A DNA stretch of 64,000 nucleotides from Candidatus Caenarcanales bacterium (GCA_041737745.1 JBGSRC010000008.1:44459-108458), one strand, 5' to 3'. Positions 3,255 through 63,165 are shown, numbered from the stretch's first letter. The notes: generated from the sequence alone by a model not told the origin. Program-made: numbers and translations.

Positions 3255-3352
3255 GGCTTGTTGCGCTCCTAGGTTTTAATTATAAAAAAATTCTAGCAAT
3301 TGAGGCCCTTAAATTAAGCTACTAAGGCGGCAAGTCCTATAATTAGAGAACT

Positions 3353-4534
3353 ATGTTCGAAGAAAAACAGTTTTTGATGATCCCCGGTCCCACTCCAGTA
3401 CCGGAAAAAGCCCTCCTAGCCCTAGCAAAAGCCCCAATGCCCCACCGGAGCAAAGAATTTTCGGAAATCTTGCTGCGCTGTACCCACAACCTAAAAGAAA
3501 TTGCCCAAACAAAAGTTGCTTCACCGCTCATCTACGCCGCCTGCGGCACGGGAGGAATGGAATGCACACTAGTGAATGTGATGAATGTCGGCGATCCGGT
3601 ACTCGCCTGCGTGAACGGAGTCTTTGGGAAAAGGTGGGCCGATATGGCCGAAAGCTTCGGTGCTGATGTCACAAGACTAAATTATGCTCCCGGTCAAGCA
3701 ATCAACGTCGATCAGTTCAAAGAAGCGCTCAGTCAGAAAAAATATCGCCTTGTGCTAGTCACTTTCTCCGAGACCTCTACCGGTGTCGCCAATCCCGTCC
3801 AAGAACTGGCCAAGATTGTTCGTGAGCAGAGCGAAGCGCTCTTTTGCCTCGACGCTATCACTGGCCTAGCTGCCATTCCGATGATGATGGACGAGTGGGG
3901 AGTGGATGTAGTCATCTCTGGCAGCCAAAAGGGCTTTATGATCCCACCTGGTCTTACTTTTAGTTGGGCTAGCGAGAAGGCTTTGCGTTTTCATGGCGAA
4001 TCGAAATTTCCGCGTTTTTATTGGGATTGGACTAAAGCCTTCAAGGCGCTCAGCCAAGATACTACCGCTTTCACCCCAAATGTCTCACTAGTCTGTGCCC
4101 TCGATCAGACTCTTCAGATGATGGTCAAAGAAGGAATGCCAAAAATATGGCTCAGACATAAGCGCCTCCGTGAGACTGTCCGCCAATCGGTAAAGGCGAT
4201 GGGTTTGACTCTACTGGCTGGCGATGAAGATGCTAGTGCAGCTATTACTTCAGTTTTTCCTCCTGAGGGGGTCTCAGTGAAAGATCTTAGACGCAAGCTA
4301 AAAGAAGATTGGCAGATAGTGGTGGCTGATGGACAGCTGGAGCTTCAGGGCAAGATCTTTCGTCTTGGGCATCTCGGTTATGTTTCCGATCGTGATGGTT
4401 TGATGGCTTTGTCGGCTTTGGCGCAAGTACTTGAAGAGCTTGGGCATAAAACTGGGTCTGAGTGGCTGGAAGTTTATAAGAGCACTAAGGCTAAATATCT
4501 TCAGGAGTCTGAGCTATCCGCTGTCAGTATTTGA
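3353..4534 (+). CDS. Class V pyridoxal-phosphate aminotransferase (serine-pyruvate / alanine-glyoxylate aminotransferase family)
   Basis: 393 aa. PLP-lysine motif 'SGSQKGFMIPPG' and an 'ACGTGGMEC' N-terminal region typical of the AGXT family. Confidence 0.75.
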   Translation: MFEEKQFLMIPGPTPVPEKALLALAKAPMPHRSKEFSEILLRCTHNLKEIAQTKVASPLIYAACGTGGMECTLVNVMNVGDPVLACVNGVFGKRWADMAESFGADVTRLNYAPGQAINVDQFKEALSQKKYRLVLVTFSETSTGVANPVQELAKIVREQSEALFCLDAITGLAAIPMMMDEWGVDVVISGSQKGFMIPPGLTFSWASEKALRFHGESKFPRFYWDWTKAFKALSQDTTAFTPNVSLVCALDQTLQMMVKEGMPKIWLRHKRLRETVRQSVKAMGLTLLAGDEDASAAITSVFPPEGVSVKDLRRKLKEDWQIVVADGQLELQGKIFRLGHLGYVSDRDGLMALSALAQVLEELGHKTGSEWLEVYKSTKAKYLQESELSAVSI

Positions 4535-43318: not shown

Positions 43319-44392
43319 TTGTTTACTTCTGGCTTTGAGTCCATTAGAGATTTGATTTTGGGTAGGAGCGCTGGGAGTTTTGAGGAGCTTGCTTTGTCGC
43401 TTTTTGCTTATCAGTCATCTCAGAACCTCAGCTATGCTAGATATATTCAAGCGGCTGGACTGGAGAGCTTCAAGCCGCAGCGCTGGTCTGAAATTCCCCT
43501 TATGCGAGCTGATTCATTTAAGCGACTCAGGCATTATTGCTCAGTTGAAGAGCCTGTGCTCTGTTTTCGCTCTAGTGGCACGACTGATTCGATCCGCAGC
43601 GAGCATCATTTGAGCGCTCAAGAACTTGAGTTGTATGAGTTGTCGCTTTGGGCAAGTTTTAGTGAAGCTTTTCCCCTTGTTTCCACCAATGCCCCTGTTC
43701 AGGTCTTCTTTCTTTCAGAGCCCTATACGGAGCGTTTAGATTCTTCGCTTTTCTATATGTTCGAGTGTATCCGGGGGCGTCTAAACCAACCCGAGAGCGC
43801 TTATTTATTGCAGTCAGGAAGCTTTGATCTGGAGCCGCTCAGGGGGGCTATCAAGCTGGGAGATAAGCCCATTCTCTTGCTGGGGACAGCCTATGCGTTC
43901 GCTGAGCTGCTTGAAAAGAGCAACGAGCCTTTGAGTTTGCCGGCTGGATCGGCTCTAATGGAGACTGGAGGTTTCAAAACTAGCAAAGTGACTCTTAGCA
44001 AGCAAGAGCTCTATGCCAGTCTCTCTGAGTGCTTTGCTTTGCCAGAGAGTTCTATAGTCGGCCAATACGGGATGAGTGAGCTTGGTAGCCAATATTATGA
44101 TCAGTCTTATGTGCTGGGTGAGCCTAAAGCCAGAATGAAGCTAGCCAAGCCTTGGTGTCAGTTTCGGATTTTACGTCCTACTGATCTGAGTCAAGACTGC
44201 ACCGAGGGAGAGCTTGGGCTGATTGCGCATTATGATCTGACAAATTGTGATTCTTTGGCTTTCATTCTTAGTCAAGATCTGGGCAGACAGGTTGCTGGTG
44301 GTTTTGAGTTGATCGGTCGGGCTCCTAAGGCTGTCTTGCAGGGTTGTTCTCTGGATAGTGAGGCCTATCTGACCGCTAGGAGGGAGCTTTGA
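43319..44392 (+). CDS. Putative adenylate-forming acyl-protein/acyl-CoA synthetase-like protein (LuxE/PaaK-like)
   Basis: 357 aa. 'FRSSGTTDS' resembles the acyl-adenylate P-loop-like motif of the LuxE/PaaK family. Weak assignment. Its stop overlaps the GT2 start by 4 nt. Confidence 0.4.
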   Translation: MFTSGFESIRDLILGRSAGSFEELALSLFAYQSSQNLSYARYIQAAGLESFKPQRWSEIPLMRADSFKRLRHYCSVEEPVLCFRSSGTTDSIRSEHHLSAQELELYELSLWASFSEAFPLVSTNAPVQVFFLSEPYTERLDSSLFYMFECIRGRLNQPESAYLLQSGSFDLEPLRGAIKLGDKPILLLGTAYAFAELLEKSNEPLSLPAGSALMETGGFKTSKVTLSKQELYASLSECFALPESSIVGQYGMSELGSQYYDQSYVLGEPKARMKLAKPWCQFRILRPTDLSQDCTEGELGLIAHYDLTNCDSLAFILSQDLGRQVAGGFELIGRAPKAVLQGCSLDSEAYLTARREL

Positions 44393-45531
44393 TTTTAATT
44401 TTTTTATATTTCTTCGCTGCGCTCAGCTTAGCCATCTGGATCTTCTATTTGCTACGGATCCGCGAGTCTATTCGCCAAGACATTCCCCTCACTAGTTCTG
44501 AGATCATTGGCCAGCCGAGCCTCTCAATCTTGATCCCGGCCTATAACGAAGAGCAAAATATCTCTACTATCCTTAGTAGCTGCCTATTTACGCTCAAAGA
44601 CTACAAGTATCTCTACGAAATCTTAGTTCTAGACGACAATTCGCAAGATAAGACCACTGCTGAACTGGAAAGTTTCAAGCGAGCTCATCCCAGCCTCAAT
44701 TTGAAGCATTGGGTGGGTACTGAAACCCCTGCTGGTTGGACGGGGAAAAATTGGGCTTGCGCTCAGCTTTCTCAGAGAGCAACTGGTGATTATTTATTGT
44801 TTCTGGACGCCGATGTGCGTTTGCTGGCCGGAGGATTGGAGCTTGCTCTCTCTTATGCTCAAAAAAATCAAAGTGCTCTTTTGAGTGGCACACCGGATTT
44901 GCTCTGCGAGCATTGGTCAGAGATCTTGGTGCAGCCTTTGCTCGTTGCTGGGGCTAGGTCTCATTTTAATTTTGAGCGAGTGAACGATCCCTTGGCAGAA
45001 GAGGCTTTTGCTTCTGGGCCTTTTATGCTTTTTGAGCGAGGGGCATATTTTGCTTCTGGCGGTCATGAGGCTGTGGCTGCAGAGATTGTGGAAGATGTTT
45101 CTCTTTCCAAGCTTTTCAAGTCTTTGGGTCTTCGAGTGGCTTTGGTGGATGCCAGCAAGGTTTATCAGCTCCAGATGTACAGTTCTTTTGGGCAGCTTTG
45201 GGAGGGGTGGACTAAAAACGTTCATTTGGCTTTTGGGCGAAAATTTGAGGTTACGTCGCTTTATGCTTTGGTTCAGCTTTTCACCAATCTGGCTCCTTTT
45301 GGTCTTTTGGTTGGGGCTGTGGTGTTTAAGAGTTGGGTTGTTTTTGGGGTGAGTTTATTTTGTTTTTGGGCGCAGGGATATATTTTTGGTCTTGTTGCGC
45401 CGAGGTATTGGTTTTATTTTTGGGTGAGTCCTATTGGTTCTTTGATTGTTTTTGCTATTTTTCTGGGATCTATTTGGAAGACTGAGACGGGCTTGGGTTG
45501 GACATGGCGAGGCAGGCAGTTGAGGTTGTAG
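44389..45531 (+). CDS. Family 2 glycosyltransferase with C-terminal membrane domain
   Basis: GT-A fold motifs 'LSILIPAYNEE', 'VLDDNSQDKT', 'FLDADV' (DxD), and multiple C-terminal TM helices; 380 aa. Confidence 0.75.
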   Translation: MILIFLYFFAALSLAIWIFYLLRIRESIRQDIPLTSSEIIGQPSLSILIPAYNEEQNISTILSSCLFTLKDYKYLYEILVLDDNSQDKTTAELESFKRAHPSLNLKHWVGTETPAGWTGKNWACAQLSQRATGDYLLFLDADVRLLAGGLELALSYAQKNQSALLSGTPDLLCEHWSEILVQPLLVAGARSHFNFERVNDPLAEEAFASGPFMLFERGAYFASGGHEAVAAEIVEDVSLSKLFKSLGLRVALVDASKVYQLQMYSSFGQLWEGWTKNVHLAFGRKFEVTSLYALVQLFTNLAPFGLLVGAVVFKSWVVFGVSLFCFWAQGYIFGLVAPRYWFYFWVSPIGSLIVFAIFLGSIWKTETGLGWTWRGRQLRL

Positions 45532-45815
45532 AGGTTTTAGACTCATCCCCCCAGCCCCTTAAACCCCTCAGAGCAAGGACATTACTGAGACGGGCTTGGG
45601 TTGGACATGGCGTGGTAGGCAGTTAAGGAAAGACTGAATAACTCAATCAAGGGGGAGTTTGAGGGGGCCTTAGGTCCCCTCATAACAAATACTTCAAGTA
45701 ACCTCAAGTGACTCCAAACATTCCCTTAAGAACCAAACCAGAGTGAGACGGGCTCAAGTTGGACATGGCGAGGTAGACAATTGAGGTTCTAGAGGTTTTT
45801 ACTCATCCCCCAGCC
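45481..45815 (+). repeat. Three copies of the GT2 gene 3'-terminal segment (45481..45560 including the stop, 45583..45625, 45741..45815) interleaved with a REP/MITE unit (45645..45695)
   Basis: 'ACTGAGACGGGCTTGGGTTGGACATGGCGAGGCAGGCAGTTGAGGTT(G/C)TAGAGGTTTT(T)ACTCATCCCCC' is repeated with ~85-90% identity. Confidence 0.7.
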
Positions 45816-45928
45816 CTCTTCTCAAGAAGGGGGAGTAAAGAAAAGATTCTAAGAGGTTGAGGTTCTGAAAATTACTCAACTCAAGACCTTAAACGTGTAT
45901 ATGATTGTTAGTAAAAGTATTTTGACTT

Positions 45929-46126
45929 ATGAAAATAAAAGCGATCATTCATGAAGCGGAAGAAGGCGGCTATTGGGCGGAAGTGCCTATTTTTGCTGGT
46001 TGTTATACTCAAGGCGAAACGATTGAAGAGACTATCGAAAATCTCAAAGAAGCAATAAATCTTTATGTAGATGATGATCCCCAAATGTCCAGTCCTAGCG
46101 ACACTCTTGTAGAACTTAGCTTGTGA
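45929..46126 (+). CDS. hicB: HicB-family antitoxin (minimal, UPF0150 domain only)
   Basis: 'IIHEAEEGGYWAEVP..GCYTQGETIEE' HicB N-domain signature; 65 aa. Translationally coupled (ATGA overlap) to the downstream hicA. Confidence 0.75.
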   Translation: MKIKAIIHEAEEGGYWAEVPIFAGCYTQGETIEETIENLKEAINLYVDDDPQMSSPSDTLVELSL

Positions 46127-46326
46127 AGTCGGTTTCAGGAAAAAAATTGGCTAAGGTTTTAGAAAAGCTTGGCTGGCAGCTTGTGAGAGTTTGCGGAAGC
46201 CATCATCGTTATTCGAAAGGGAAAGAGAGTATTTCTATACCGGTTCATGCCAATCAAGATCTTAAGCTAGGTATTTTGAGGAGCATTATGAAGCAAGCTG
46301 GTCTTCAAGCTGAAGATTTGCTCTGA
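46123..46326 (+). CDS. hicA: HicA-family mRNA interferase toxin
   Basis: 'KKLAKVLEKLGW..VR..GSHHRYSKG' YcfA/HicA dsRBD-like fold with the catalytic His; 67 aa. Confidence 0.8.
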   Translation: MKSVSGKKLAKVLEKLGWQLVRVCGSHHRYSKGKESISIPVHANQDLKLGILRSIMKQAGLQAEDLL

Positions 46327-46339
46327 ACTTATAACCCCC

Positions 46340-47071
46340 TCAGCCTTTCTCTCGCACTAACACGATCTCCCCGTAAAACTTCTCCTGCCAAAGCTCAGCC
46401 TTGCCCCCATGCGAATAAAAGAGAGCCGCCAAAAATGTATCGGTACAATCCAAAAACAACGAATCAAATGAACTGAGTGGCACTCTCTCCCCTCTCAAAA
46501 CAGACTTCTCAAAGAAAGTAGTAAAGAGCTCAATCTTTGCCTCCAAGTTTTCCTCATGAGCGATCTCCAACGCCTCAGTGTCTTCATCCTCCCGCATCGA
46601 AATCTCATCATCTAGTGCTAGATCGCGGAGCGAGTTGCGCTTGCGCTTCACCAGACGAGGAGCTTGCGTTTCCACTTCTTTGAAAAGAGCGACCAGTTCA
46701 TCTAAAGTGACGCTTCTAGTGCGATTTGGGCGAAGAAGAGCTTCTTTGCGTTGCAGAAAATCACGTGAATTCTGAGGAGAGCTCAGTAAAGCCTCTACCT
46801 CACTGTCTTCATAATCAAAATCCCCGAAGTCAACCAAATCACCTTCCTCAGCACCAAACTGAGGAACGAAAAGTCGCTCTGATTTGAGACGCAAAAGCAC
46901 TGAGACAGACAAGATGATCTGCGCCGCCTCTTGCAGCTCACGCGAGCCCTTTTTAGCGAGCAGTTCTTCGAAAAGCCTTTCGATCACTTTCACCAGATCG
47001 ACGTCCCACGGGTCAATCTCCCGCCGACCGGACATCTGAATCAAGAGTTCAATGGGTATATTTGCTTCCAT
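46340..47071 (-). CDS. scpA: Segregation and condensation protein A (kleisin)
   Basis: N-terminal 'DPWDVDLVKVIERLFEEL' and 'ILSVSVLLRLKSERLFVP' kleisin motifs; winged-helix C-terminus; 243 aa. Confidence 0.75.
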   Translation of the reverse strand: MEANIPIELLIQMSGRREIDPWDVDLVKVIERLFEELLAKKGSRELQEAAQIILSVSVLLRLKSERLFVPQFGAEEGDLVDFGDFDYEDSEVEALLSSPQNSRDFLQRKEALLRPNRTRSVTLDELVALFKEVETQAPRLVKRKRNSLRDLALDDEISMREDEDTEALEIAHEENLEAKIELFTTFFEKSVLRGERVPLSSFDSLFLDCTDTFLAALFYSHGGKAELWQEKFYGEIVLVREKG

Positions 47072-47080
47072 CTACCTATA

Positions 47081-48184
47081 ATGATGGGTGTTATGACCGA
47101 AAAAGAGCAAGTTCTGATCTGGCAAAAGCATTTCTTCAAAGTAGCCACCATTATCGGTTACTTGTTGTTGGGCTTTGGATTACTTTGGCTTTGCTCGCTC
47201 TTTCAACAGGTTTGTAGCATTGTCGGCTATGCCATTTTGCTTTCGTATATCTTAGTGGGGCCTGTCGATTGGTTGCAGAAAAAAACCCCGCTCAAAGGGC
47301 GCCTCTTTCCCGTTGCTTTGGTCTATATTTCTGTAGTCACTCTATTGGTGGGTTTTGTAATCTTGGTTACTCCCAAGTTAGCCGTTCAGCTCAAAATTCT
47401 CGCCCATGAAGCTCCCGGTTATCTAGACCGGCTCGAAGAGCTTTTGTTGAATATACCTGGTTTGCGCGATCTGGGCGTCAGTAGCGAATTTTTATCTAGA
47501 GAGAAGTTTGCTGAGCTCTTGAGGGAGTCTTTTGATACTTTGGCCCTTCGCTTGCTTCAGTTTGCCACTGGGACTTTCAGTTTCATGCTCTTTGCTTTTG
47601 CTTCTTTGGTGCTCTCTGTTTATTTTCTCATTGATGGTCCTCGGCTTTGGCGCGGGGTCAGTCAGCTTTGTAGCCCTCGCTATTTGCGTGATTTGCACAA
47701 TCTTAGGCATGAACTAGACCGGAATCTGAGAGCTTATTTCATTGGCCAAGTTCAGCTGGCAAGCTTGAGCGGGGTTTTTGTCTTTGCCATGTACTCGAGC
47801 ATGGGATCGAGCTTTGCTCTTTTGTTGGGGATTTGGCAGGCTCTGGTGGAGATCATTCCGGTGGTCGGTGGCTTGATTGGGATTTTGTCTGGGGTCATTG
47901 TTTTATTGCTTACTCAGCAAAACCCATGGCTTGCGCTGATCGCTTTTGTGGTCTATATGATTTACACGCAACTCTTCAAAGATAATTTTCTGACTCCACG
48001 AATTATTGGGAACGCTATCGGTCTGCATCCTGTAGTGGTCTTGTTGGTCGTGATCATGGGCGCTGAGCTGGCCGGTGTGAATGGAGCCGTCTTTGCCTTG
48101 CCGCTCGCTGGTATAGTCAATGTTATGGGTGGTTTTATCCTATCTAGAGCAGCTAAAAGACAAAGTCATGAGCTCAACCAGTGA
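47081..48184 (+). CDS. AI-2E family transporter (PerM/UPF0118 permease)
   Basis: Eight predicted TM helices with the family-typical 'IIPVVGGLIG' and C-terminal 'LPLAGIVN' segments. The track ORF starts at TTG 46931 and overlaps scpA by 140 nt. The in-frame ATG at 47081 is the more likely start. Confidence 0.7.
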   Translation: MMGVMTEKEQVLIWQKHFFKVATIIGYLLLGFGLLWLCSLFQQVCSIVGYAILLSYILVGPVDWLQKKTPLKGRLFPVALVYISVVTLLVGFVILVTPKLAVQLKILAHEAPGYLDRLEELLLNIPGLRDLGVSSEFLSREKFAELLRESFDTLALRLLQFATGTFSFMLFAFASLVLSVYFLIDGPRLWRGVSQLCSPRYLRDLHNLRHELDRNLRAYFIGQVQLASLSGVFVFAMYSSMGSSFALLLGIWQALVEIIPVVGGLIGILSGVIVLLLTQQNPWLALIAFVVYMIYTQLFKDNFLTPRIIGNAIGLHPVVVLLVVIMGAELAGVNGAVFALPLAGIVNVMGGFILSRAAKRQSHELNQ

Positions 48185-48198
48185 GAAGGTGAACTGAG

Positions 48199-49872
48199 AT
48201 GCTGCAAGAATTGCGCTTGCAAAACTATCTTTTAGTACCTGAAGCTTGCCTGAGCTTTGGGGCTGGTCTAAATGTGATTTTGGGCGAGACAGGCTCTGGA
48301 AAGTCTATTTTGCTCGATTCGATCATTCATCTTTTTAGCTCTAGGCTCACTGGCGATCTGATTCGTTCTGGCCAGTCAAGAGCCAGTCTTGAGGCTAGTT
48401 TTAGCAAGACTAGTCTTCTTCAGTACTGGCTGGAGAGTACTGATCTAGAGCTGAGCGAAGAATCAGATCTGGTTTCTTTTAGTCGCGAAATAGGGGAGAA
48501 AGGAAGTAAGGCCAGACTGGATGGCACTCTGATTCCCTCAAAGATTTTGCCGGCTGCGCGCAAGGCTTTGCTGAGCTTTCATGGACAAGGAGAAGAGGAG
48601 CAGATCTTTCAGGAAGAGAGTCTGCTCGCTTTGCTGGACGAGAGAGCAGAAGATCCGAACCTTCTCACTAAATACAAAACGAGCTATAAGCTTTGGTCAG
48701 AACAGAAAGCTGCTCTTAGAGCCTTGGAGAAACGATCGGGGGATTTGGAGCGGGAAAAAGAGTTCTTGGCCTTTCAGTTGGCCGAGCTGGTCAACGCTAA
48801 ACTCACTAGCCCCGATGAAGAAGAGCTTCTGCAGGCCGAGTTGAATTTAATTGGCTCGAAAATCCAGCTGAAACAAATTCAGGCTGGCTTAGAGCAGACG
48901 GCTACCCCCTTCAAGCGGGCTTGTTACGCTGCAGCAAAAAAACTAGAAATTAATCCAGCCCTAGCCCAGCTCGCTACCCGGCTAAAATCGCTCGATCTAG
49001 AAACGCAAGATCTGCTCGCAACACTCAGTGAGCTACTTGGTGGTCTAGAGGAGACAGATAAAAAAACAGACCAGCTCAATGAACGCATTCATGCTCTTCA
49101 GCTCCTGCGCCGCAAATATAATCAAAGCGATCTATCCGCTCTGATTGCTAGGCGCGATGGGCTAGAACGAGAAAAACTGACACTCGATAATTTCGACTAT
49201 GAGTTGGCCAGTGGCCAAAGACAGCTGGCTTTGCGTGAGCAAGAACTGGCTCATTTGGCTCAGGATCTGTCGGCTCAAAGAGAAAAAGCAGCCCAAATGA
49301 TTTCTCAAGAGCTTTTGGCCAGAATCTCCGGTCTGGGACTAGAGAGAGCAAGAGTGAACTTTAGTGTGCAGCGCAAAGAGAGTTTTTGCCTTAGTGGGCG
49401 GGATAGAGCGAGCTTGCTTTTCAGTTCAAACCCCGGTGAAAAGCTCACTGACGTCTTGGAGACAGCTTCTGGTGGGGAATTGTCGCGCTTGGCGCTTGGT
49501 TTGCACACACTATCTAGCCAACTGGGCGCTCAGGTGCTGCTTTTTGACGAGATAGACAGAGGTACCAGTGGCCGTATTGCCGAGAGGATCGGTTGTTTAT
49601 TGGCTGAGCTAGCTACTAGAAATCAGATCATCTGTGTCACTCACCAGCCTCTGATCGCTTGCTTTGCCGAAAGGATTTTCAAGGTTTCTAAAAGCTTTGT
49701 CGGTGAAAGTACTGCTGTTGAGTTTCGGATGCACCAAAAAGAAGAAGAGATTGTTAGTGACTTGGGAGAGCTGATCTCAGGAGAGGGAGAAGAGGATAAG
49801 ATAGCTGCTTATGAATATGCCAAAGGACTTCGTGAAAAAGCATTACAGCTCAGCTCCCGCTCCGCTTTTTAG
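48199..49872 (+). CDS. recN: DNA repair protein RecN
   Basis: N-terminal Walker A 'ILGETGSGKSILLD', long coiled-coil middle, C-terminal 'SGGELSRLALGL' signature and 'LLFDEIDRG' Walker B; 557 aa. Confidence 0.9.
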   Translation: MLQELRLQNYLLVPEACLSFGAGLNVILGETGSGKSILLDSIIHLFSSRLTGDLIRSGQSRASLEASFSKTSLLQYWLESTDLELSEESDLVSFSREIGEKGSKARLDGTLIPSKILPAARKALLSFHGQGEEEQIFQEESLLALLDERAEDPNLLTKYKTSYKLWSEQKAALRALEKRSGDLEREKEFLAFQLAELVNAKLTSPDEEELLQAELNLIGSKIQLKQIQAGLEQTATPFKRACYAAAKKLEINPALAQLATRLKSLDLETQDLLATLSELLGGLEETDKKTDQLNERIHALQLLRRKYNQSDLSALIARRDGLEREKLTLDNFDYELASGQRQLALREQELAHLAQDLSAQREKAAQMISQELLARISGLGLERARVNFSVQRKESFCLSGRDRASLLFSSNPGEKLTDVLETASGGELSRLALGLHTLSSQLGAQVLLFDEIDRGTSGRIAERIGCLLAELATRNQIICVTHQPLIACFAERIFKVSKSFVGESTAVEFRMHQKEEEIVSDLGELISGEGEEDKIAAYEYAKGLREKALQLSSRSAF

Positions 49873-50380
49873 TCTGTTTTTGTTTTCGCTTATCGCTCTA
49901 GGAGCTTATCCTGTCTTTGCCTTAGAGGTCCAAAAGCTCGCTGGTGTAGCGCTCAAAAAAGAGAATGAGAGCACTTGTAATGAGAACGCAGACCAACTGA
50001 GAGGGCTTGTTGCTAGTCCTAGTCAGTATTTGAATAAAGAAGTTTGTATTGCTGGAGATTTTGATTCTTTCTCTTCGACTTTGGCTTTGGACTATAGTCC
50101 AGCTCAGCGTGAGGGGAAAGATTTTTTGTCTTTGGTGATTGCACGCCCCAAGACCAAGATTCCTCTTTCAGAGTTGAAGCTGGCTGTTCGCATCAAAGAC
50201 GCTCAGAAGCATTTGGCTTTAGCTAAAATCCAAGAAGGCGATAGAATTTTCTTAAAAGGAATTGTCTTCAGTGCGGCTCTAGGTGAGGCTTGGGTTGATG
50301 TGTCTGAGCTGAAGGTGATTCCTTTGCCCGGTCGAAAGAAAGAAGAGGAGTCTTTGATCGATTCGATGGACGAAGAGTGA
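49811..50380 (+). CDS. Hypothetical secreted protein
   Basis: N-terminal signal-like 'LFSLFLFSLIALGAYPVFA'. The ORF overlaps the recN 3' end by 62 nt, so the start may be further downstream (non-ATG). Confidence 0.4.
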   Translation: MNMPKDFVKKHYSSAPAPLFSLFLFSLIALGAYPVFALEVQKLAGVALKKENESTCNENADQLRGLVASPSQYLNKEVCIAGDFDSFSSTLALDYSPAQREGKDFLSLVIARPKTKIPLSELKLAVRIKDAQKHLALAKIQEGDRIFLKGIVFSAALGEAWVDVSELKVIPLPGRKKEEESLIDSMDEE

Positions 50381-50435
50381 GGTTTTTCAGTGCCGCCTGA
50401 AATGTGTATAAGATAGAAAGTAAGAGCAAAAAAAC

Positions 50436-50630
50436 ATGAAAATCCAAGTGATAGTTCACGAAGCGGAAGAAGGGGGCTATTGGGCAGAAGTGCCCTCATT
50501 GCCTGGCTGCGTCACTGAAGGCGACACAATGGAAGAGCTTCAAGAGATGCTCAAAGAAGCGATAACTCTTTATCTCAGACCTCTTCCCGAATCTCATCCA
50601 ACGGGCAAAATCCTAGAACTAACGCTTTGA
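50436..50630 (+). CDS. hicB: HicB-family antitoxin (second copy, minimal)
   Basis: 'VIVHEAEEGGYWAEVPSLPGCVTEGDTMEE'; about 65% identical to the 45929 copy; 64 aa. ATGA overlap with the downstream hicA. Confidence 0.75.
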   Translation: MKIQVIVHEAEEGGYWAEVPSLPGCVTEGDTMEELQEMLKEAITLYLRPLPESHPTGKILELTL

Positions 50631-50830
50631 AACAAATCTCCGGCAAGAAGCTAGCAAAAATCTTGGAGCACTTAGGCTGGAAACTTGTTGACGTTGAAGG
50701 CAGCCATTTCAAATACAGAAAAGGCGAGCGCACGGCTATTATCCCCATCCACGCTAATCGCGATCTTCGCATTGGCACATTAAAATCAATAATGAAAGCA
50801 GCAGGCTTGACTGAAGCAGACTTGCTTTGA
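50627..50830 (+). CDS. hicA: HicA-family mRNA interferase toxin (second copy)
   Basis: 'KKLAKILEHLGWKLVDVEGSHFKYRKG'; paralog of 46123..46326; 67 aa. Confidence 0.8.
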   Translation: MKQISGKKLAKILEHLGWKLVDVEGSHFKYRKGERTAIIPIHANRDLRIGTLKSIMKAAGLTEADLL

Positions 50831-50855
50831 TGAATAAAAAAGAGCTCTAAAAAAC

Positions 50856-50927
50856 TGGGCCATGCGGGACTCGAACCTGCAACCAACTGATTAAGAGTCA
50901 GCTGCTCTACCATTGAGCTAATGACCC
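50856..50927 (-). tRNA. tRNA-Lys (anticodon CTT); CCA not encoded
   Basis: Minus-strand cloverleaf: acceptor 'gggtcat'/'atggccc', D-arm 'agctcaatggtagagc', anticodon stem-loop 'gctga-ctCTTaa-tcagt', T-arm 'ggttcgagtcc'. Confidence 0.8.
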
Positions 50928-51108
50928 ACTCAAGGCTAGTGAGTATAGCCCAAAATTTAGAAACTGTGTCCGACAAAAAATGAAAGCTTGAGCTGCTTGC
51001 CTGCAGCATTAAAGATTCTTTACTAGTTTAGACCGGTCAGGCATCACCTTAATATTCTCTTCACATGATAAATTTATTAATAGAGAAATTTATTAATTTT
51101 AGATTAAG

Positions 51109-52455
51109 TTGTCTATCGCTAACACAACACCAGTTCAAGGCAAGGGAGGAGTCTTTCGGCAATTAGCCAAAATGACCCAACTCTTTACCCTGCCTAGTAG
51201 TGAAAGCAAGGCCACACTCTTCACTAAAATCCCCATAGCCGTTTCGGTTACCTGTTTTTTGCCTATACTACTTGGGCTCATTGCCAGAAAACAAGTAGAC
51301 AAGCGCATGCTCGAAGTCTATGAAAACCCTGATAGTGAGCAAGCCAAACTTTCTCCTCTCACTACTTTTCTGTCGAAGATGTATACGGTCGCTTTTGCTG
51401 TGACTGCTCTTGGTGGCGCCGTCAATGGTCTTGCCTATGCCTCTTTTTGCCGAATGTTCTCTTACATGGCCATGTTCGTTGGGGCTTTGTTCAATATGCG
51501 CAACGAGTTTCGGGTGATCAACAACACAAACCAAGCAATTGAGCTCAGCAATGATATCCACAAAGCACAAAAGAAAGACTTTGGGAGCAAAGACACCCGT
51601 CACATCGAAGAAATTAAAAAAGAGCTCCAAGAAACTATCCAAAAAGCCAATCAAGGAGTGGGTTGGCTAGCCTTCTTCTCGCGTTTCTTGTACCCGATTT
51701 TCCTCGCTCTCACTTTCTTTTCCAATGTCAATCAACTGCTCGGTAAAGGCCACAAAAATATACGTTGCTTAGTGCCTGAAGGTGCCACCAATGGTCAGAT
51801 GTGGCAAAACATCAAAAAGAACTTTTGGCCAAATGCCCGTAAAGAATTTCAGACTGGCGGTATGTTCAGCCGAAAACTGCTTTCTGGGAAACACTGGGGG
51901 GAAGTCTTTGGGGCTATTGGTACTGGTTTTAAGACTGGTAAGTGGCAGGGTCTTTCGGCCAGTGGTTTCGATGCTAGTTTTATCTTAATGAACATGTGGT
52001 CTAGAGTCTTGATGGCTGTGGGTACTATGGTTGGGATGGTGGGTCTAGGTGGTCCTAAGGCTTTCTTGGTGGGGACACCTCTCTTTGAAAAATCCGATCC
52101 TGAGGTGCGGGCAATCAGTGAACAGGCCAAAGGCAAGAAGAAGTTTTTCAAGGGGCTTTTTGATACATCACTTTTGATCCAAAACCTCAGTCTCTTTTCG
52201 ATGGGGACCTCATCGGTGATGATGGGCTTCAATGCTGAGTATGCAAAGAACTTCGGGACTATTCCGTCTACTCTGCAGAAAATCGGGGGTGGCTTGTTGG
52301 GTGCTTCACCTGTTTTCGATCAGATGAATCTCTTTGTGGTTGGGGCAATTTCTAAGCTACTTAGCAACACTGTTTTGCAGCTTGCTAATGCTTTTGGTTT
52401 AGCGAAGAAGTTTGTGGATAAAGCTGGACCTATTGCTAGGGCTGTGAAGGTTTAG
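51109..52455 (+). CDS. Hypothetical membrane protein with bilobed hydrophobic segments
   Basis: 448 aa. Long paired hydrophobic stretches ('IPIAVSVTCFLPILLGLIA', 'YTVAFAVTALGGAVNGLAYASFCRMFSYMAMFVGALF') and Gly-rich C-terminal region. TTG start in the track (ATG at 51172 is an alternative). Confidence 0.45.
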   Translation: MSIANTTPVQGKGGVFRQLAKMTQLFTLPSSESKATLFTKIPIAVSVTCFLPILLGLIARKQVDKRMLEVYENPDSEQAKLSPLTTFLSKMYTVAFAVTALGGAVNGLAYASFCRMFSYMAMFVGALFNMRNEFRVINNTNQAIELSNDIHKAQKKDFGSKDTRHIEEIKKELQETIQKANQGVGWLAFFSRFLYPIFLALTFFSNVNQLLGKGHKNIRCLVPEGATNGQMWQNIKKNFWPNARKEFQTGGMFSRKLLSGKHWGEVFGAIGTGFKTGKWQGLSASGFDASFILMNMWSRVLMAVGTMVGMVGLGGPKAFLVGTPLFEKSDPEVRAISEQAKGKKKFFKGLFDTSLLIQNLSLFSMGTSSVMMGFNAEYAKNFGTIPSTLQKIGGGLLGASPVFDQMNLFVVGAISKLLSNTVLQLANAFGLAKKFVDKAGPIARAVKV

Positions 52456-58453: not shown

Positions 58454-59023
58454 ATGGAAAATACCAATAGTCCACCCCCTCAAGTTATCCCCCCAAGCGA
58501 TAATCAAGTCCCCCAAGCAGATCAAGCAGTCTCTTGGAAAGAAGCAACCAGTATCTTAAATGAAACTATAGCCCACAGCCCAGCCCTAGAGCGCGTAGCG
58601 CAAGAACAAGGCTATCACTGCTTTGAAGAAGCTTATTTTCAGCATTACGGAAATTATCTGCAAGCGCTGAAAGCTTCTTCCTCAGACCCGCAAGCGAGAG
58701 CGATCACCGGTCAGCTGGAAGGGCTCTGGTTCGCCGGAAAATACGCTGATGCTCTGCAAGTCGCTTCTCGTTACTTTGGGAAAGTGGCTCAAACAAGCCA
58801 AGCTCCTCAAAGCCTGCAGCCCAGACACCAAAGCGGCAATGAGGGATATTTGGGGGCTTATCCCTTTCGCTCTCGCCAAGAGTACCAACAAGCTTCCCGT
58901 TCGCAAGACCCTAGAATGCGCGAAATGGCCCAAAAAGCCTGGAGAACATGGCTAACTACCTATCGCCGCGATTCTAATAATCCTCAAACCCCCTACCCAA
59001 TGGAGACTAACCCCAATGCCTAA
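58454..59023 (+). CDS. Hypothetical Pro/Gln-rich protein (candidate scaffold/cargo of the downstream HK97-fold protein)
   Basis: 189 aa, disordered Pro-rich N-terminus, Gln/Ala-rich. Overlaps the next gene by 8 nt (translational coupling). Confidence 0.4.
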   Translation: MENTNSPPPQVIPPSDNQVPQADQAVSWKEATSILNETIAHSPALERVAQEQGYHCFEEAYFQHYGNYLQALKASSSDPQARAITGQLEGLWFAGKYADALQVASRYFGKVAQTSQAPQSLQPRHQSGNEGYLGAYPFRSRQEYQQASRSQDPRMREMAQKAWRTWLTTYRRDSNNPQTPYPMETNPNA

Positions 59024-59936
59024 TATCACTCGCTCATCGTTGAGCGCTCAGTTTTCTAATCCTGTTGCCGATAAGATCCTCGAATATCTTTACGATTATC
59101 TGATCTTTGCGCCGCAATTTTTTGATGCCGAACATGGCAACCTGATCTCACAAGATCCGATGGACAAACGCCCGAAGATCTTCGATGCCTCAAAGTATGT
59201 CAAACGGGCTTATTCTCGTGGCGAGACGATCAAAATCCCCAACATACCGCGCCTCTATGCCCAAGATAAACTAGCAGACACCGAGATCACCGATCAGTCG
59301 CTAAACGTTAGCAGCGTCTCGCTCACTATCACCACCCACAAGTATGTCAGCGTGGTTTTGGAAGATTCGGCCGAGGCTTTCGACAATACAGCTATGGTCG
59401 AAGAGATGGCTAAGCGCGAAGCTCGTGCGCTTGCCGAAGCCTTTGAAGATTCGGTGATCGCTACTTTCGGTGACTTTGCCACAGTAAATGGAGGCGGAGT
59501 TGGTGATGTTTTGAGTTTCGATGATTTTGCGGTTTGGAATAGGACTTTCTTCAAGAAAGGCGTCAATCTCGATCATTCACCGGCTTGGGCTATTCTCACT
59601 CCCGAGCAGTATTCTGTATTGGCCACCACTCGTGATGAGTTCACTGTGGCTGGCGAAAAAGGGCTTGGCACCTTCAATTCTGGCCGAATCATAGAGACTC
59701 CCCATGGGATTTATGCGCTTCGTTCGAATCGTCTCAGTTCATCTGGTGGGTCTGCTACTGGTCTATGCTTTACTGAGAATGCTTTGATGTGTGCTTTTGC
59801 GATCATGCCTCGTTTCGTTGAGACTCGCGATGATCGGAAGGTTGGGATTCGTTTTTATGCTGACTTTATGGCTGGAGTGGCTAAGCTGAGAGACGAAGAA
59901 GGTATTAGGCTGAACTTTGACGCTGATAGCGTTTGA
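59016..59936 (+). CDS. HK97-fold major capsid protein / encapsulin-like shell protein
   Basis: By eye it is collinear with T. maritima encapsulin and T7 gp10 over the E-loop/P-domain region. The matches are 'LEDSAEAFDNTAMVEEMAKREARALAEAFEDSVIATFG' to '...LDLWELDNLE..VAEFEDEVIFRG', and 'SGRIIETPHGIYAL' to 'GGKIITTPRIEDAL'. 306 aa. Confidence 0.5.
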   Translation: MPNITRSSLSAQFSNPVADKILEYLYDYLIFAPQFFDAEHGNLISQDPMDKRPKIFDASKYVKRAYSRGETIKIPNIPRLYAQDKLADTEITDQSLNVSSVSLTITTHKYVSVVLEDSAEAFDNTAMVEEMAKREARALAEAFEDSVIATFGDFATVNGGGVGDVLSFDDFAVWNRTFFKKGVNLDHSPAWAILTPEQYSVLATTRDEFTVAGEKGLGTFNSGRIIETPHGIYALRSNRLSSSGGSATGLCFTENALMCAFAIMPRFVETRDDRKVGIRFYADFMAGVAKLRDEEGIRLNFDADSV

Positions 59937-60089
59937 TGTTGATGCAATTACTTGATTGGTTTTATTAAGCATAGGAGCCTCTTAAAGAATTTACGGGGCC
60001 AAAGCCCCAAGCCGCCTTTCTTAATTTGAAGAACAACCCACTTTTTGAAGTAACTAAAATCCCCAACTAAAAAAAAGAGAAAAAAATAA

Positions 60090-60893
60090 ATGATCGACTT
60101 TGAAAAATTCGTCGGCGATCTGGAAGCCCTCAAAAACCATGGAGGTTCCTCCAAACGCCTTAACCACTTCGACCCTCGTGACCAAAAAAAGCTAAAACAA
60201 GCCTCCCAAGATCTCGTCCTCCTGAATAATACCGGCAGACGCCTCTTCATCACCAATCAACTCGGCTTTGTAAATTATTTCAATGTCCAACCCGATGGAG
60301 TCAAGCACCTAGTCGATCTGATCAGACCCTATTGGCTCGGCCTCCCCAATACCTTTGAACAACCGCTCTTCGATACAGCCAGTCAAGTACAAAGCTTCAT
60401 CACCGAACGCCTAGTGGCCGACTTGGTCGAGATGGTCTCCTCTTGGCGCCTGAACTTTGACCGGAATCCTGTCCCAATCAGAAAAAAAGGCCTAAGAAGC
60501 TTCAAGGGCTACAAATCTCGCCCCTACCGCGAATGGTTCAAAGATCACTTTGCCGAGAGTACCTATACCTACGATGTCGTGATCGCTCTAGCCGAAGACA
60601 AACCGCTCACTATCCCCCGCAAAACTGAGCTTTGGGGCATGGGCGGAGAGCTGCTGAGCGAAGAAGAAGAGCTACTGGTCAGGCAAGATCTCTCGGCTGA
60701 TCCTAAACCAAAGCTGCTCCAGTTCATCGAATCTGTCCCAAGCGATCTCTGGGAAATAAAATCTCAAGCTCGCACTGGCCTAGAAGAGCTAGAGCTGAGA
60801 GGAAAAATGCAACAGCTCGAAAAAGAAATAGAAAGCCTGAAAAATCTAAAAACATCCCTCACCAAACAAAAAGGAAAAGAAAATAATGTCTGA
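60090..60893 (+). CDS. Hypothetical protein with C-terminal coiled coil
   Basis: 267 aa; C-terminus 'ELELRGKMQQLEKEIESLKNLKTSL'. No motif. Confidence 0.4.
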   Translation: MIDFEKFVGDLEALKNHGGSSKRLNHFDPRDQKKLKQASQDLVLLNNTGRRLFITNQLGFVNYFNVQPDGVKHLVDLIRPYWLGLPNTFEQPLFDTASQVQSFITERLVADLVEMVSSWRLNFDRNPVPIRKKGLRSFKGYKSRPYREWFKDHFAESTYTYDVVIALAEDKPLTIPRKTELWGMGGELLSEEEELLVRQDLSADPKPKLLQFIESVPSDLWEIKSQARTGLEELELRGKMQQLEKEIESLKNLKTSLTKQKGKENNV

Positions 60894-61257
60894 AATAGCA
60901 AACATGATTTTGTGCAATGGCACAGTAGATCTCACCAATGGCAGTAGTGGCGTGACTTTTAAGGTCGATCGGGCGGGAGATCTGATACTGGGCGAATGTT
61001 TTGTCGAACTTTTGACCGGAGTAGTAGGCACAACTACTGCCCCTATTGTCGGCATTTCTATAGCTGGTGCTGAGCAGGGTTCAGTTACTGCCCCCAATGC
61101 TAGACCGGCTGGCGATTTGCTGCGTTTTGCGCCCACTACACAAAGAGGGCCTGCTATCAGGCTTTCAGCCGGTGAGACAGTTCGAGTCTTCACCAAGACC
61201 GCTGCTGCTGGGGGCGTTCCTGCTGGCAGTTTGCGCGTGTTTCTTGCCTTGAAGTGA
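60886..61257 (+). CDS. Hypothetical small Gly/Ala/Thr-rich beta-type protein (possible phage decoration/fiber-like)
   Basis: 123 aa; overlaps the upstream gene by 8 nt. Composition typical of small beta-sandwich phage structural proteins. Confidence 0.35.
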   Translation: MSEIANMILCNGTVDLTNGSSGVTFKVDRAGDLILGECFVELLTGVVGTTTAPIVGISIAGAEQGSVTAPNARPAGDLLRFAPTTQRGPAIRLSAGETVRVFTKTAAAGGVPAGSLRVFLALK

Positions 61258-61269
61258 TTTCTTAAAACT

Positions 61270-61956
61270 ATGCCATCACAAATACTTGAAATAGTGAATC
61301 AAGCCCTAGCGAGGCTAGGGGAAACGCCTCTGAGTGCAGCCGAATATGACTTTGGTTTGGAGCGACATCAGCTCATTTTGCGCGAGGCCGTTCGTGAGTT
61401 TTGGGAGAAGACCATCAATCTAGCCAAAGACGATCTGAAATATTATTTCGAGCTGAGCACTGTCACTGGGCAGGGTCTTTACGCTCTTGGTTTTGAGCCT
61501 CTTGAGCTTGCTAGCACTCAGCTTTTTCTGCTCGATCCAAGCGCAGGGCAAGATAGACTTTTAGGCCGAGTCTTAGAAAAAGACTTGCTGGTGGATACTG
61601 GGGGAGATCTAGCAAATCTTCCTTCCGGCAAGCCTAGAGATTGGTTTGTGGCTCATACCAGTTTGGCCGGTGAGAGTAGGCTCGGTTTTGCTCCAATTCC
61701 GGATAATATTTACACGATTCGGATCTATAGGCAGCTGGCTCCGGCGGCTCTTAGTGCTAGCTCTGTCTTGATGGCCAATCGTTTGGCTCTAAGTGCTATG
61801 CGTCATTATTTGGAGTGGGTTTTGGTTCGTGAGGAGGGATTTTCTTCTGCTCCAGATTTTGAGCGTCGTTTTGAGGAGGCTTGGCATGAGTACATTGGGC
61901 GGAGCGCATCTTCAGAAAAGCGTAATCTTTTTCAATGGCCTTATCAGCAGAGCTAG
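61270..61956 (+). CDS. Hypothetical protein with N-terminus resembling podovirus tail tubular protein A (T7 gp11-like adaptor)
   Basis: 'IVNQALARLGETPLSAAEYD' versus T7 gp11 'VNDILASIGEPPVSTLEGD' (recalled from memory); 228 aa. Confidence 0.35.
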   Translation: MPSQILEIVNQALARLGETPLSAAEYDFGLERHQLILREAVREFWEKTINLAKDDLKYYFELSTVTGQGLYALGFEPLELASTQLFLLDPSAGQDRLLGRVLEKDLLVDTGGDLANLPSGKPRDWFVAHTSLAGESRLGFAPIPDNIYTIRIYRQLAPAALSASSVLMANRLALSAMRHYLEWVLVREEGFSSAPDFERRFEEAWHEYIGRSASSEKRNLFQWPYQQS

Positions 61957-62100
61957 AGTCCCCAAACCCCTATTCAATTTGAGCGACTTAACAATATATA
62001 GCGTGGCTTTTTAGAGCTGTTCAGCGTTTCATGAAGAACAGGTGGAGTTTGAGGGCGCTAGCCCTCAAGGAAATAAACTTCACTAACCGCAAGTGAGCCC
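61957..62100. repeat. 143-bp direct repeat, copy 1 (starts right after the stop of 61270..61956)
   Basis: About 93% identical to 62162..62304; contains 'GTCCCCAAACCCC' and 'GGTGGAGTTTGAGGGCGCTAGCCCTCAAGG'. Confidence 0.75.
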
Positions 62101-62161
62101 TAAAATCCCACCCCCAGCCCCTCCCTCAGGGAGGGGAGAAACTTTTTACTATGGGGACTTC

Positions 62162-62304
62162 TTCCCCAAACCCCTATTCAATTTGAGCGACTTATCAATA
62201 TATAGCGTGGCTTTTTAGAGTTATTCAGCGATTCATGAAGAACAGGTGGAGTTTGAGGGCGCTAGCCCTTAAGGAAATAAACTTCACTAACCGACAGTGT
62301 AAGC
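62162..62304. repeat. 143-bp direct repeat, copy 2 (ends at the stop of the recombinase-like gene)
   Basis: See copy 1. The 61-bp spacer carries the palindrome CCCCTCCCTCAGGGAGGGG. Confidence 0.75.
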
Positions 62305-63165
62305 TCAGCCTTCTAAAACCTCAAAGACCTTCTCGTGAATTCTTCTCAATACCCCAAGATCAAACTTGCTTTTCTTAACCAGAGAGGCAAGTTTTTTCCT
62401 ACCGACCATCTCCCGCGCAAAGAACAATCCATCTTTCTCAATCAGTGAACGCTCAGCATAATCTTGCAGATCTACCGGTGAAAGATCTAAGCCAAAGATT
62501 TTTTTCGCAAGTCGCCTAACAGCCGTAGCCAAATAAACTGGCTCAGTCTTCTCTCCCTTCCCCTTGCAAAAGACGAACTCGGCACTTTTAGCCTGCTTTC
62601 TAGATTCTTCTATCAAATCCACCAAATTTGGATCAATTGGCAAAACGCGCATCCGACCCTTCCGCCCAAGCGTGATATGCGATTTCCGACCCAGACTGAG
62701 ATCTAACCAGCGCAATTGGGAGATCTCCTCAAGCGAGGCCCCAGTAAAAGCCAATAGCGCTAAAAGCAATCGCTGAGCCGGCTTGAGTGTTTCATTGTCT
62801 GCTAGCAAAAGCTCCAGATTGGCTGCTGAGAGGCTTTGCGCTTTGGGAGATTGTTTGGCTTCTTTTGCCTTAAAGCGCCAAGGTAAAGCTAGACGTTGAT
62901 CTATGCTCGCTAGCTTCTTTTCCCCCAGCCAGAGCAGAAAACATCTGATATTTGTAGCTCTTCGCTGCCCGATTCGACGACTGCAGTCGCCTACTAAATC
63001 TAGAATCTTTTCGCTATTTAGAATACTAAAATCGAGTTTGCCTGAGCTGGCCGTTGCTGCGAAGAGAAAGTTTAAGTCGAGTTGGTAGAGTTTGGCGCTG
63101 CTCTCTAGGAGGGCTTTGTCTAAAATAAAATCATCTATAAACCCTTGGAATTCGCTCTCAGTCAT
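62305..63165 (-). CDS. Tyrosine-recombinase (XerC/XerD/phage-integrase) homolog with all catalytic residues substituted (predicted inactive)
   Basis: Collinear with XerD: a SAM-like N-domain ('RRATNIRCFLLWL'), then 'LLALLAFTGASLEEISQLRWLDL' aligned to 'LEVLYATGLRVSELVGL' (Arg to Ala/Ser), 'GRKGRMRVLPIDPNLVDLI' aligned to 'GKGNKERLVPLGEEAVYWL', 'LSPVDLQDYAERSL' aligned to 'LSPHVLRHAFATHL', and 'MVGRKKLASLVKKSKFD' aligned to 'LLGHSDLSTTQIYTH' (Tyr to Phe). 286 aa. Confidence 0.5.
   Translation of the reverse strand: MTESEFQGFIDDFILDKALLESSAKLYQLDLNFLFAATASSGKLDFSILNSEKILDLVGDCSRRIGQRRATNIRCFLLWLGEKKLASIDQRLALPWRFKAKEAKQSPKAQSLSAANLELLLADNETLKPAQRLLLALLAFTGASLEEISQLRWLDLSLGRKSHITLGRKGRMRVLPIDPNLVDLIEESRKQAKSAEFVFCKGKGEKTEPVYLATAVRRLAKKIFGLDLSPVDLQDYAERSLIEKDGLFFAREMVGRKKLASLVKKSKFDLGVLRRIHEKVFEVLEG

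Follow-up and report, generated by a model that had tools for sequence, protein, structure and literature searches.

Two pairs of very small genes in a 64,000-nucleotide stretch of the genome of Candidatus Caenarcanales bacterium (GCA_041737745.1 JBGSRC010000008.1:44459-108458; this whole 64-kb stretch is referred to below as the window) raise the question of whether they encode working HicB-HicA toxin-antitoxin systems, how such systems could be controlled when the antitoxin lacks a DNA-binding domain, and how similar cassettes came to lie only 4.5 kb from each other. The two pairs, hereinafter pair 1 (hicB1-hicA1) and pair 2 (hicB2-hicA2), were first noticed in an inspection of the DNA sequence (the original prediction), which described them as paralogous minimal modules, the second one abutting a tRNA gene, a classic integration hotspot. 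The data discussed below indicate that each pair is very probably an intact type II toxin-antitoxin operon in its own right, of the compact hicBA type that Gerdes designated Class 2.

Two Compact hicBA Operons

All four genes are encoded on the plus strand, with the antitoxin gene preceding the toxin gene, and the open reading frame (ORF) listing agrees with the originally proposed positions and order. In pair 1, hicB1 (45929..46126; 198 nt, ATG start) encodes a 65-aa antitoxin and hicA1 (46123..46326; 204 nt, GTG start) encodes a 67-aa toxin; in pair 2, the 64-aa antitoxin comes from hicB2 (50436..50630; ATG start) and the 67-aa toxin from hicA2 (50627..50830; TTG start). The predicted start/stop overlap of 4 nt is present in both pairs, but it does not read ATGA: the junction is GTGA in pair 1 (AGC TTG TGA AGT) and TTGA in pair 2 (ACG CTT TGA AAC). 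The similarity between the pairs had also been somewhat overstated, at about 65%, as the measured identities are 58% for HicB1 versus HicB2, 63% for HicA1 versus HicA2, and 62% for the cassette DNA; this likeness is nevertheless far above chance (BLASTP E values of 1e-26 and 4e-31). No further copies of hicA or hicB were found elsewhere in the window. The genes located between the pairs include, as expected from the original prediction, scpA (PF02616), the gene for an AI-2E transporter (PF01594), and recN (best match TIGR00634, with a score under the cut-off of that model), followed by a 189-aa ORF. The hicA1 stop codon is 13 nt away from that of scpA, with the two gene ends convergent. Pair 2 adjoins, as had been stated, a gene for tRNA-Lys(CTT) (50855..50928, minus strand; detected by ARAGORN and scored at 70.1 bits by Rfam), which is convergent with hicA2; 24 nt intervene between the hicA2 stop codon and the facing tRNA 3' end. 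We treat this tRNA gene as a neighbor and not as a part of the system.

Both toxins are readily recognized by the HicA_toxin profile PF07927 (gathering cut-off 27 bits; HicA1 scores 72.6 and HicA2 scores 66.6), which aligns to residues 6-61 over all of its positions (1-58 of 58), and HicA also matches phrog_353, annotated as ‘toxin’ (E = 3.5e-17). The Gly25-Ser26-His27 motif is invariant in HicA1 and HicA2. Among sequences in the PDB, HicA1 matches 4C26 and 6G26, the HicA toxin of Burkholderia pseudomallei (E = 2e-9), so aligned that its His27 falls at the position of the catalytic histidine, which is occupied by Ala in the 4C26 chain (GSHHR versus GSAHH); we take 4C26 to be the H24A mutant. 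The AlphaFold2 (AF2) model of HicA1, built from only 2 sequences with a predicted local distance difference test score (pLDDT) of 84.7, has an alpha-beta-beta-beta-alpha topology (helix 6-15, strands 19-24, 27-32, and 35-40, helix 49-59). In Foldseek searches, it matches chain E of the 6G26 HicAB complex with a template modeling (TM) score of 0.75-0.81, a root mean square deviation of 1.7 Å, and 42% identity; the other top matches are 1WHZ, 4C26, and 4P78_C. His24 and Gly22 have been described as key residues of the B. pseudomallei toxin (PMC11594946). HicA is thus modeled as a double-stranded RNA-binding-domain-like fold with a conserved Gly-Ser-His active-site motif, and the original statement that this motif is kept holds for both copies and is matched by the fold.

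The antitoxins score above the cut-offs of two Pfam families, HicB_lk_antitox (PF15919; 35.8 bits for HicB1 and 36.2 bits for HicB2, cut-off 27) and UPF0150 (PF21748; 31.7 and 31.5 bits, respectively, cut-off 27.3). These matches are confined to residues 5-50, and the Pfam search found no DNA-binding family on either HicB; NCBIfam had no model matching these short proteins. Sequence matches of HicB1 in the PDB are the N-domains of the B. pseudomallei and Escherichia coli HicB proteins and the 67-aa TTHA1756. The AF2 model of HicB1, based on 24 homologs (pLDDT 80.6), contains strands 6-9, 15-18, and 26-29 and a helix at 32-47, after which an 18-residue tail (48-65) is floppy, with pLDDT of about 60. 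All 18 of its 18 best PDB matches in Foldseek are HicB N-domains or stand-alone homologs from Thermus (probability 0.90-1.00, TMq ≤0.74). According to this model, HicB is the toxin-binding N-domain alone, with a partial RNase H fold, and the Pfam, PDB, AF2, and Foldseek results all agree with the earlier view that these antitoxins have no DNA-binding domain. Between the two pairs, non-synonymous divergence is 0.27-0.31 per site, whereas synonymous divergence ranges from 0.50 to saturation, which is consistent with purifying selection on both proteins.

Class 2 modules have been defined by the hicBA gene order, a HicB of 57-94 aa in which no DNA-binding domain is identifiable, and a single-domain HicA of 60-85 aa. 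Their genes usually overlap, suggesting translational coupling; together with Class 1, these modules represent the most prevalent HicA contexts (bioRxiv 10.1101/2023.12.08.570793). HicB proteins without a DNA-binding domain were likewise described as common in a 2024 review (PMC11594946). The pairs in the window show every one of these Class 2 features, i.e., gene order, protein lengths, lack of a DNA-binding domain, and overlap, and they lack the helix-turn-helix (HTH) or ribbon-helix-helix (RHH) domain at the C-terminus that characterizes Classes 3 and 4. The word “minimal,” applied to these HicBs originally, is therefore apt as a description but not as a sign of anything unusual, since a minimal HicB is what defines the prevalent Class 2.

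The abundance of similar cassettes points in the same direction. Homology searches returned 2,219 matches for HicB1 and 3,689 matches for HicB2, nearly all of them 64-68 aa in length, and many already carry a name, from NCBI ‘type II toxin-antitoxin system HicB family antitoxin’ and from JGI ‘RNase H-like HicB family nuclease’. In a metagenome scan, 588 of the 600 stretches listed were confirmed relatives, which is a lower bound. Conservation of the small ORFs as pairs in relatives, on which the original prediction had been made to depend, is evident: the closest relatives of HicB1 are encoded in cassettes with exactly this arrangement of a 198-nt hicB, a 4-nt overlap, and a 204-nt hicA, namely in a metagenome contig of cyanobacterial type and in two genomes of Synechocystis. 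In a scripted survey of the gene junctions at 85 further loci, which recovered a complete hicA behind hicB in 67 cassettes, 62 of these had the 4-nt overlap. The hicA start codons in those 62 were ATG (42 cassettes), GTG (13), and TTG (7). The value of the two pairs is mainly one of correct annotation: a sparsely sampled lineage related to Melainabacteria contributes two intact members to a class that was known before and is very large.

Relationship and Possible Acquisition of the Two Pairs

The best relatives of HicB1, at 77-78% identity, include proteins from Synechocystis, Cronbergia, and Sphaerospermopsis, and those of HicB2, at 75-78% identity, include proteins from Geminocystis and metagenomes. 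When 230 pooled cluster representatives are ranked by score, HicB1 has 119 of them closer to it than HicB2, which comes 120th, and HicB2 has 155 closer than HicB1, which comes 156th. Foreign relatives being closer than the sister copy in the window, the two pairs did not arise by a recent duplication within the genome; furthermore, Geminocystis herdmanii has members of both HicB sub-lineages, so the split predates the window genome. The two pairs can therefore be called paralogous only in a loose sense, and not in the sense of a recent local duplication. As judged from their sequences, they represent two sub-lineages within a single widespread subfamily, which is found most often in cyanobacteria. 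Gene conversion between hicB1 and hicB2, prompted by their lower synonymous divergence, was considered as well and found unsupported: where two copies share a residue, the codon is identical at a frequency of 0.58 if both are from the window and of 0.53-0.54 if one is from the window and the other cyanobacterial, which is no specific excess.

The two pairs also differ in composition. Pair 1 (45929-46326) has a GC content of 41%, in the 6th percentile of 400-nt windows, and a GC content at third codon positions (GC3) of 0.32-0.37, compared to 0.47-0.54 for the host genes, and looks compositionally foreign. Pair 2 is host-like, with a GC content of 46.3% (z = -0.25) and GC3 of 0.43-0.49. Repeated acquisition, as proposed originally, appears plausible because of the low GC content of pair 1 and the foreign nearest relatives. 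Horizontal movement is suggested by the contrast between HicB, with 77% identity to cyanobacterial proteins, and RecN from the same window, for which no known protein exceeds 34%, although this argument is weakened by the different evolutionary rates of HicB and RecN. As for a plasmid or phage source, the only candidates were relatives of approximately 50% identity, carried by Helicobacter plasmids and by Helicobacter and Streptococcus phages, and one weak IMG/VR match; such a source was rejected.

The host lineage itself offers few points of comparison. A scan of GTDB representatives with RecN produced only a 26%-identical match from Rhodothermales and no close relative; the nearest RecN proteins (31-34% identity) come from metagenome-assembled genomes (MAGs) of Caenarcaniphilales and Obscuribacterales. 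The window proteins are singletons, seen in one NCBI contig and one Logan contig that represent the same locus. Placement of the host near Melainabacteria is tentative, as it is drawn from RecN and the 189-aa ORF only. This ORF (49811-50380) overlaps the recN end by 62 nt and has no match in Pfam, NCBIfam, or PHROGs. A Caenarcaniphilales MAG (locus L090, 7805-8437) has a counterpart that overlaps the end of recN in the same way and shares 55% identity with it over 119 aa, and this may be a conserved recN-associated gene. The gene order shared with the nearest RecN contigs is limited to recN and the 189-aa ORF. In the Caenarcaniphilales MAG, this unit is followed by neither hicBA nor a tRNA gene; it does not provide a clean empty site but agrees with hicBA2 being accessory.

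The original prediction went further and proposed that the pairs had been acquired repeatedly by site-specific integration, pair 2 at the 3' end of tRNA-Lys, a classic hotspot. The short distance from hicA2 to the tRNA 3' end favors this scenario, as do the foreign relatives of each HicB, the low GC content of pair 1, and the absence of hicBA behind the recN-189-aa ORF unit in the Caenarcaniphilales MAG. We nevertheless consider it unlikely. No second copy of the 22-nt tRNA-Lys 3' segment was found in the 64 kb with up to 3 mismatches, and a repeat search likewise found none. The approximately 450 nt between the 189-aa ORF and the tRNA gene hold the hicBA2 cassette alone, with no integrase, and there was no integrase or transposase near either pair within the ORFs checked. 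The tRNA hotspot claim is thus not borne out, the site having no att-like (attachment site-like) repeat and no adjacent integrase and the composition of pair 2 being host-like. Both pairs are accessory genes at convergent gene ends, where insertion causes the least harm, so their location can be explained without any mechanism specific to the tRNA.

The same scenario could draw on a repeat found directly upstream of pair 1. The 3' end of a glycosyltransferase family 2 (GT2) gene (44389-45531) is present in three copies at 45479-45820, spaced 103 and 158 nt apart. In the reading frame of the gene, these copies encode its C-terminus as TETGLGWTWRGRQLRL and a stop, then a sequence ending in RKD and a stop, and then SETGSSWTWRGRQLRF and a stop. 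They look like att-type scars of integration at the 3' end of the gene; however, the repeat is confined to the spacer directly upstream of hicBA1, with all copies on one side of the cassette. No unusual RNA structure was detected in this repeat-rich spacer (fold z = -0.58).

A separate, phage-derived segment is located between miaB and ribH (58454-63165), 6-12 kb from tRNA-Lys and on its 5' side. It includes an ORF similar to major head proteins (59016-59936; PF25209, phrog_267), an SU10-type head-tail adaptor (61270-61956), and a tyrosine integrase (62305-63165, minus strand). The latter, 11 kb from tRNA-Lys, is the sole integrase-like ORF found, and its position in a distinct segment argues against a part in the insertion of pair 2. 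A 448-aa ORF (51109-52455) adjoins the tRNA gene; searches of Pfam, NCBIfam, PADLOC, and PHROGs gave no match for it, and it contains apparent hydrophobic stretches, as seen by eye only. A 22-nt A-rich sequence, TAAAAAAGAGCTCTAAAAAACT, between hicA2 and the tRNA (50835-50856) recurs at 20 of its 22 positions within the 448-aa ORF (51615-51636), which is probably due to chance because of its low complexity.

Another possibility is that one cassette was duplicated within the host lineage and that the two pairs are true, old paralogs that have kept a common promoter or leader. What favors it is a 31-nt sequence upstream of each antitoxin gene: CCTTAAACGTGTATATGATTGTTAGTAAAAG in pair 1 (45887..45917, plus strand; -42 to -12 from the hicB1 ATG), with a candidate -10 box TATGAT, and CCTGAAATGTGTATAAGATAGAAAGTAAGAG in pair 2 (50396..50426, plus strand; -40 to -10 from the hicB2 ATG), with a candidate -10 box TAAGAT. 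The two leaders are identical at 24 of the 31 positions, compared to at most 20-21 of 31 in the controls, which comprised 300 shuffles and the upstream regions of 71 other hicB genes. Within the window, exact matches to their core GTGTATAWGAT, which holds a plausible -10 box of the TAnnnT type, occur only at the two cassettes, and no match was found in approximately 250 kb of related loci. Even cassette pairs that are much closer to each other (L003 versus L005 and L006 versus L007, among the loci compared) have unlike leaders. The host lineage being almost unsampled, intermediates could simply be missing. Against an old duplication stand the identities of the HicBs, which are 75-78% to cyanobacterial and metagenomic proteins but 58% to each other, the presence of both sub-lineages in G. 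herdmanii, a codon identity no higher between the window copies than to the foreign ones, and the difference in GC3 between pair 1 and pair 2. On balance, old paralogy appears quite improbable. The leader may be a promoter or leader sequence retained by both cassettes in this lineage or inherited from unsampled donors.

Integrity and Expression of the Operons

By analogy with characterized systems, free HicA would cleave RNA independently of the ribosome and arrest growth, and the helix of the HicB N-domain would pack on the HicA sheet, burying the catalytic histidine. The toxin would become free once the labile antitoxin was lost, be it through stress, phage infection, or disappearance of the locus. 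Since HicB masks the catalytic histidine whatever its DNA-binding domain (PMC11594946; bioRxiv 10.1101/2023.12.08.570793), the N-domain alone should suffice for neutralization.

Several observations weigh against the view that the pairs are intact, working operons. Modules of Classes 1 and 2 were experimentally untested as of 2023 (bioRxiv 10.1101/2023.12.08.570793). The monomer model of HicB1 does not form the fourth of the beta strands expected for the HicB fold. PADLOC found no defense-system neighbors for the four proteins and six neighboring ones, so an anti-phage role receives no support from the context. No sigma-70-type consensus promoter was found upstream of either hicB, the counts of such sites being no higher than in shuffled sequences, which makes the assignment of the 31-nt leader as a promoter weak. 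Neither toxin gene starts with ATG, and the exact sequence of hicA2 is missing from a 15-billion-protein collection and uncalled in the public annotations that were looked up. Finally, hicA is shorter than 60 aa in 12 of the 67 surveyed cassettes (18%).

The 12 cassettes with a short hicA include the two that are closest to pair 2. In cassette L006, hicB is intact and hicA carries a TGA nonsense codon directly after GSHFKY (decayed toxin at 3195-3400); in the G. herdmanii cassette L007, again with an intact hicB, an internal deletion removes the catalytic region of hicA (3195-3300). Cassette L008, also close to pair 2, is likewise decayed. Loss of the toxin with retention of the antitoxin is thus a common fate, which the copies in the window have so far escaped.

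Alternatively, the pairs in the window could be seen as silent relics, with one or both toxins untranslated or inactive and HicB persisting as an orphan antitoxin or serving no function at all. The GTG and TTG start codons of hicA, the missing hicA2 protein, the dead toxins of L006 and L007, and the frequency of truncated hicA genes all speak for such a view. It is very doubtful, however, given that both hicA ORFs in the window are full length with the Gly-Ser-His motif intact and that non-synonymous divergence is well under synonymous divergence. Moreover, GTG or TTG starts are found in 19 of the 49 full-length toxins (39%), including TTG at the same overlapping position in 7 of the 49, which argues that such starts work and that the junctions in the window are ordinary class variants showing no sign of decay. 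The TTG start also accounts for hicA2 having been missed by gene callers; instead, the Logan gene calls place a 144-aa antisense ORF (50575-51009, minus strand) over hicA2 and tRNA-Lys, and this ORF is almost certainly spurious. The last alternative, that the short hicB genes are pseudogenes of a classical HicB (approximately 135-150 aa) that lost its DNA-binding domain, as some short HicBs did (Gerdes, bioRxiv 10.1101/2023.12.08.570793), is effectively refuted by the thousands of homologs of the same 64-68-aa length and by the 62 of 67 cassettes in which hicA starts within the hicB stop, there being no remnant of a DNA-binding domain after hicB because hicA begins there.

With intact type II operons of Class 2 as the preferred interpretation, the mode of their control becomes the main issue. 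The regulation of Classes 1 and 2 has been named an open question (bioRxiv 10.1101/2023.12.08.570793). As HicB lacks a DNA-binding domain and there is no third gene, classical operator autorepression cannot apply. A search for an autoregulatory operator upstream of each hicB, suggested along with the original prediction, came up with nothing but 6-bp inverted repeats, GTTGAG-N14-CTCAAC in pair 1 and TTTCAG-N6-CTGAAA in pair 2, which are too short to be told from chance, and these HicBs have no domain to bind them. Screening for known RNA families in the region, including the repeat-rich spacer, returned only the tRNA.

The anatomy of the genes suggests a simpler arrangement. No Shine-Dalgarno-like sequence precedes hicA1 or hicA2, as read directly from the sequence, and the start of each lies inside the hicB stop; hence, translation of hicA most likely relies on ribosomes that re-initiate after terminating on hicB, i.e., the two genes are most likely translationally coupled. 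Re-initiation at a weak GTG or TTG codon would be less efficient, so that the amount of toxin would not exceed that of the antitoxin. The toxin would never be made without the antitoxin, and the dosage would probably be set post-transcriptionally, with transcription probably starting from the short promoter or leader common to both cassettes. That 39% of the full-length toxins have a weak GTG or TTG start within the antitoxin stop bears on the question of how compact hicBA operons are regulated.

The shared leader allows for a more specific proposal, namely, that it is a common cis-regulatory site, read by a host factor or serving as an RNA-level target of the HicA-HicB complex or of HicA. If true, this would explain in concrete terms how hicBA operons are controlled when HicB has no DNA-binding domain. 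We regard it as highly improbable, a shared regulatory site being less likely than a retained or inherited promoter or leader. A general host promoter motif was also considered and is out, as exact matches are limited to the two cassettes. In any case, two diverged cassettes with one leader constitute a convenient natural pair for tests of promoter or leader function and of cross-neutralization.

Comparison with Known HicBA Systems

The closest counterparts are other Class 2 hicBA modules, such as the modeled example from Campylobacter sp. RM12654 (MBZ7977437.1/MBZ7977438.1), with which the pairs in the window share gene order, protein sizes, and overlap. The folds are alike as well: HicB is beta-beta-beta-alpha(-beta), and HicA is alpha-beta-beta-beta-alpha. 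There is no defining difference; what the window adds is a poorly sampled host, two diverged copies 4.5 kb apart, and the shared 31-nt leader.

The cyanobacterial cassettes from Synechocystis sp. PCC 7339 (L003 and L004) and G. herdmanii (L007) have the same gene lengths and the same 4-nt overlap, and they share 75-78% identity with the window in HicB and 61-67% in HicA. They differ in that their hicA genes start with ATG, giving the ATGA junction, whereas those in the window start with GTG and TTG, and in that their leaders are unrelated to the ones described here. In addition, the toxins of the Geminocystis cassette and of L006 are decayed, while those of the window are intact.

Stand-alone proteins of similar size and fold are also known from Thermus thermophilus: TTHA1756 (PDB entry 2YZT, 67 aa) and TTHA0281 (2DSY) resemble the HicBs of the window, the former matching HicB1 with a Foldseek probability of 1.00, and 1WHZ, from the same organism, matches HicA1 with a TM score of 0.87. 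Sequence identity of the Thermus proteins to those of the window is only 22-24%, and their depositors left the function uncharacterized.

Finally, the classical HicAB and HicBA systems, including those of E. coli K-12, B. pseudomallei (6G26), Yersinia pestis (HicA3B3, 4P78), and Streptococcus pneumoniae (5YRZ), belong to Gerdes Classes 3 and 4. These systems and the pairs in the window have in common the HicA fold with its catalytic histidine and the fold of the HicB N-domain, which is the toxin-masking domain. In the classical HicBs, however, a C-terminal HTH or RHH domain dimerizes and represses the operon at palindromic operators, whereas the HicBs of the window consist of the toxin-masking domain without any such domain.

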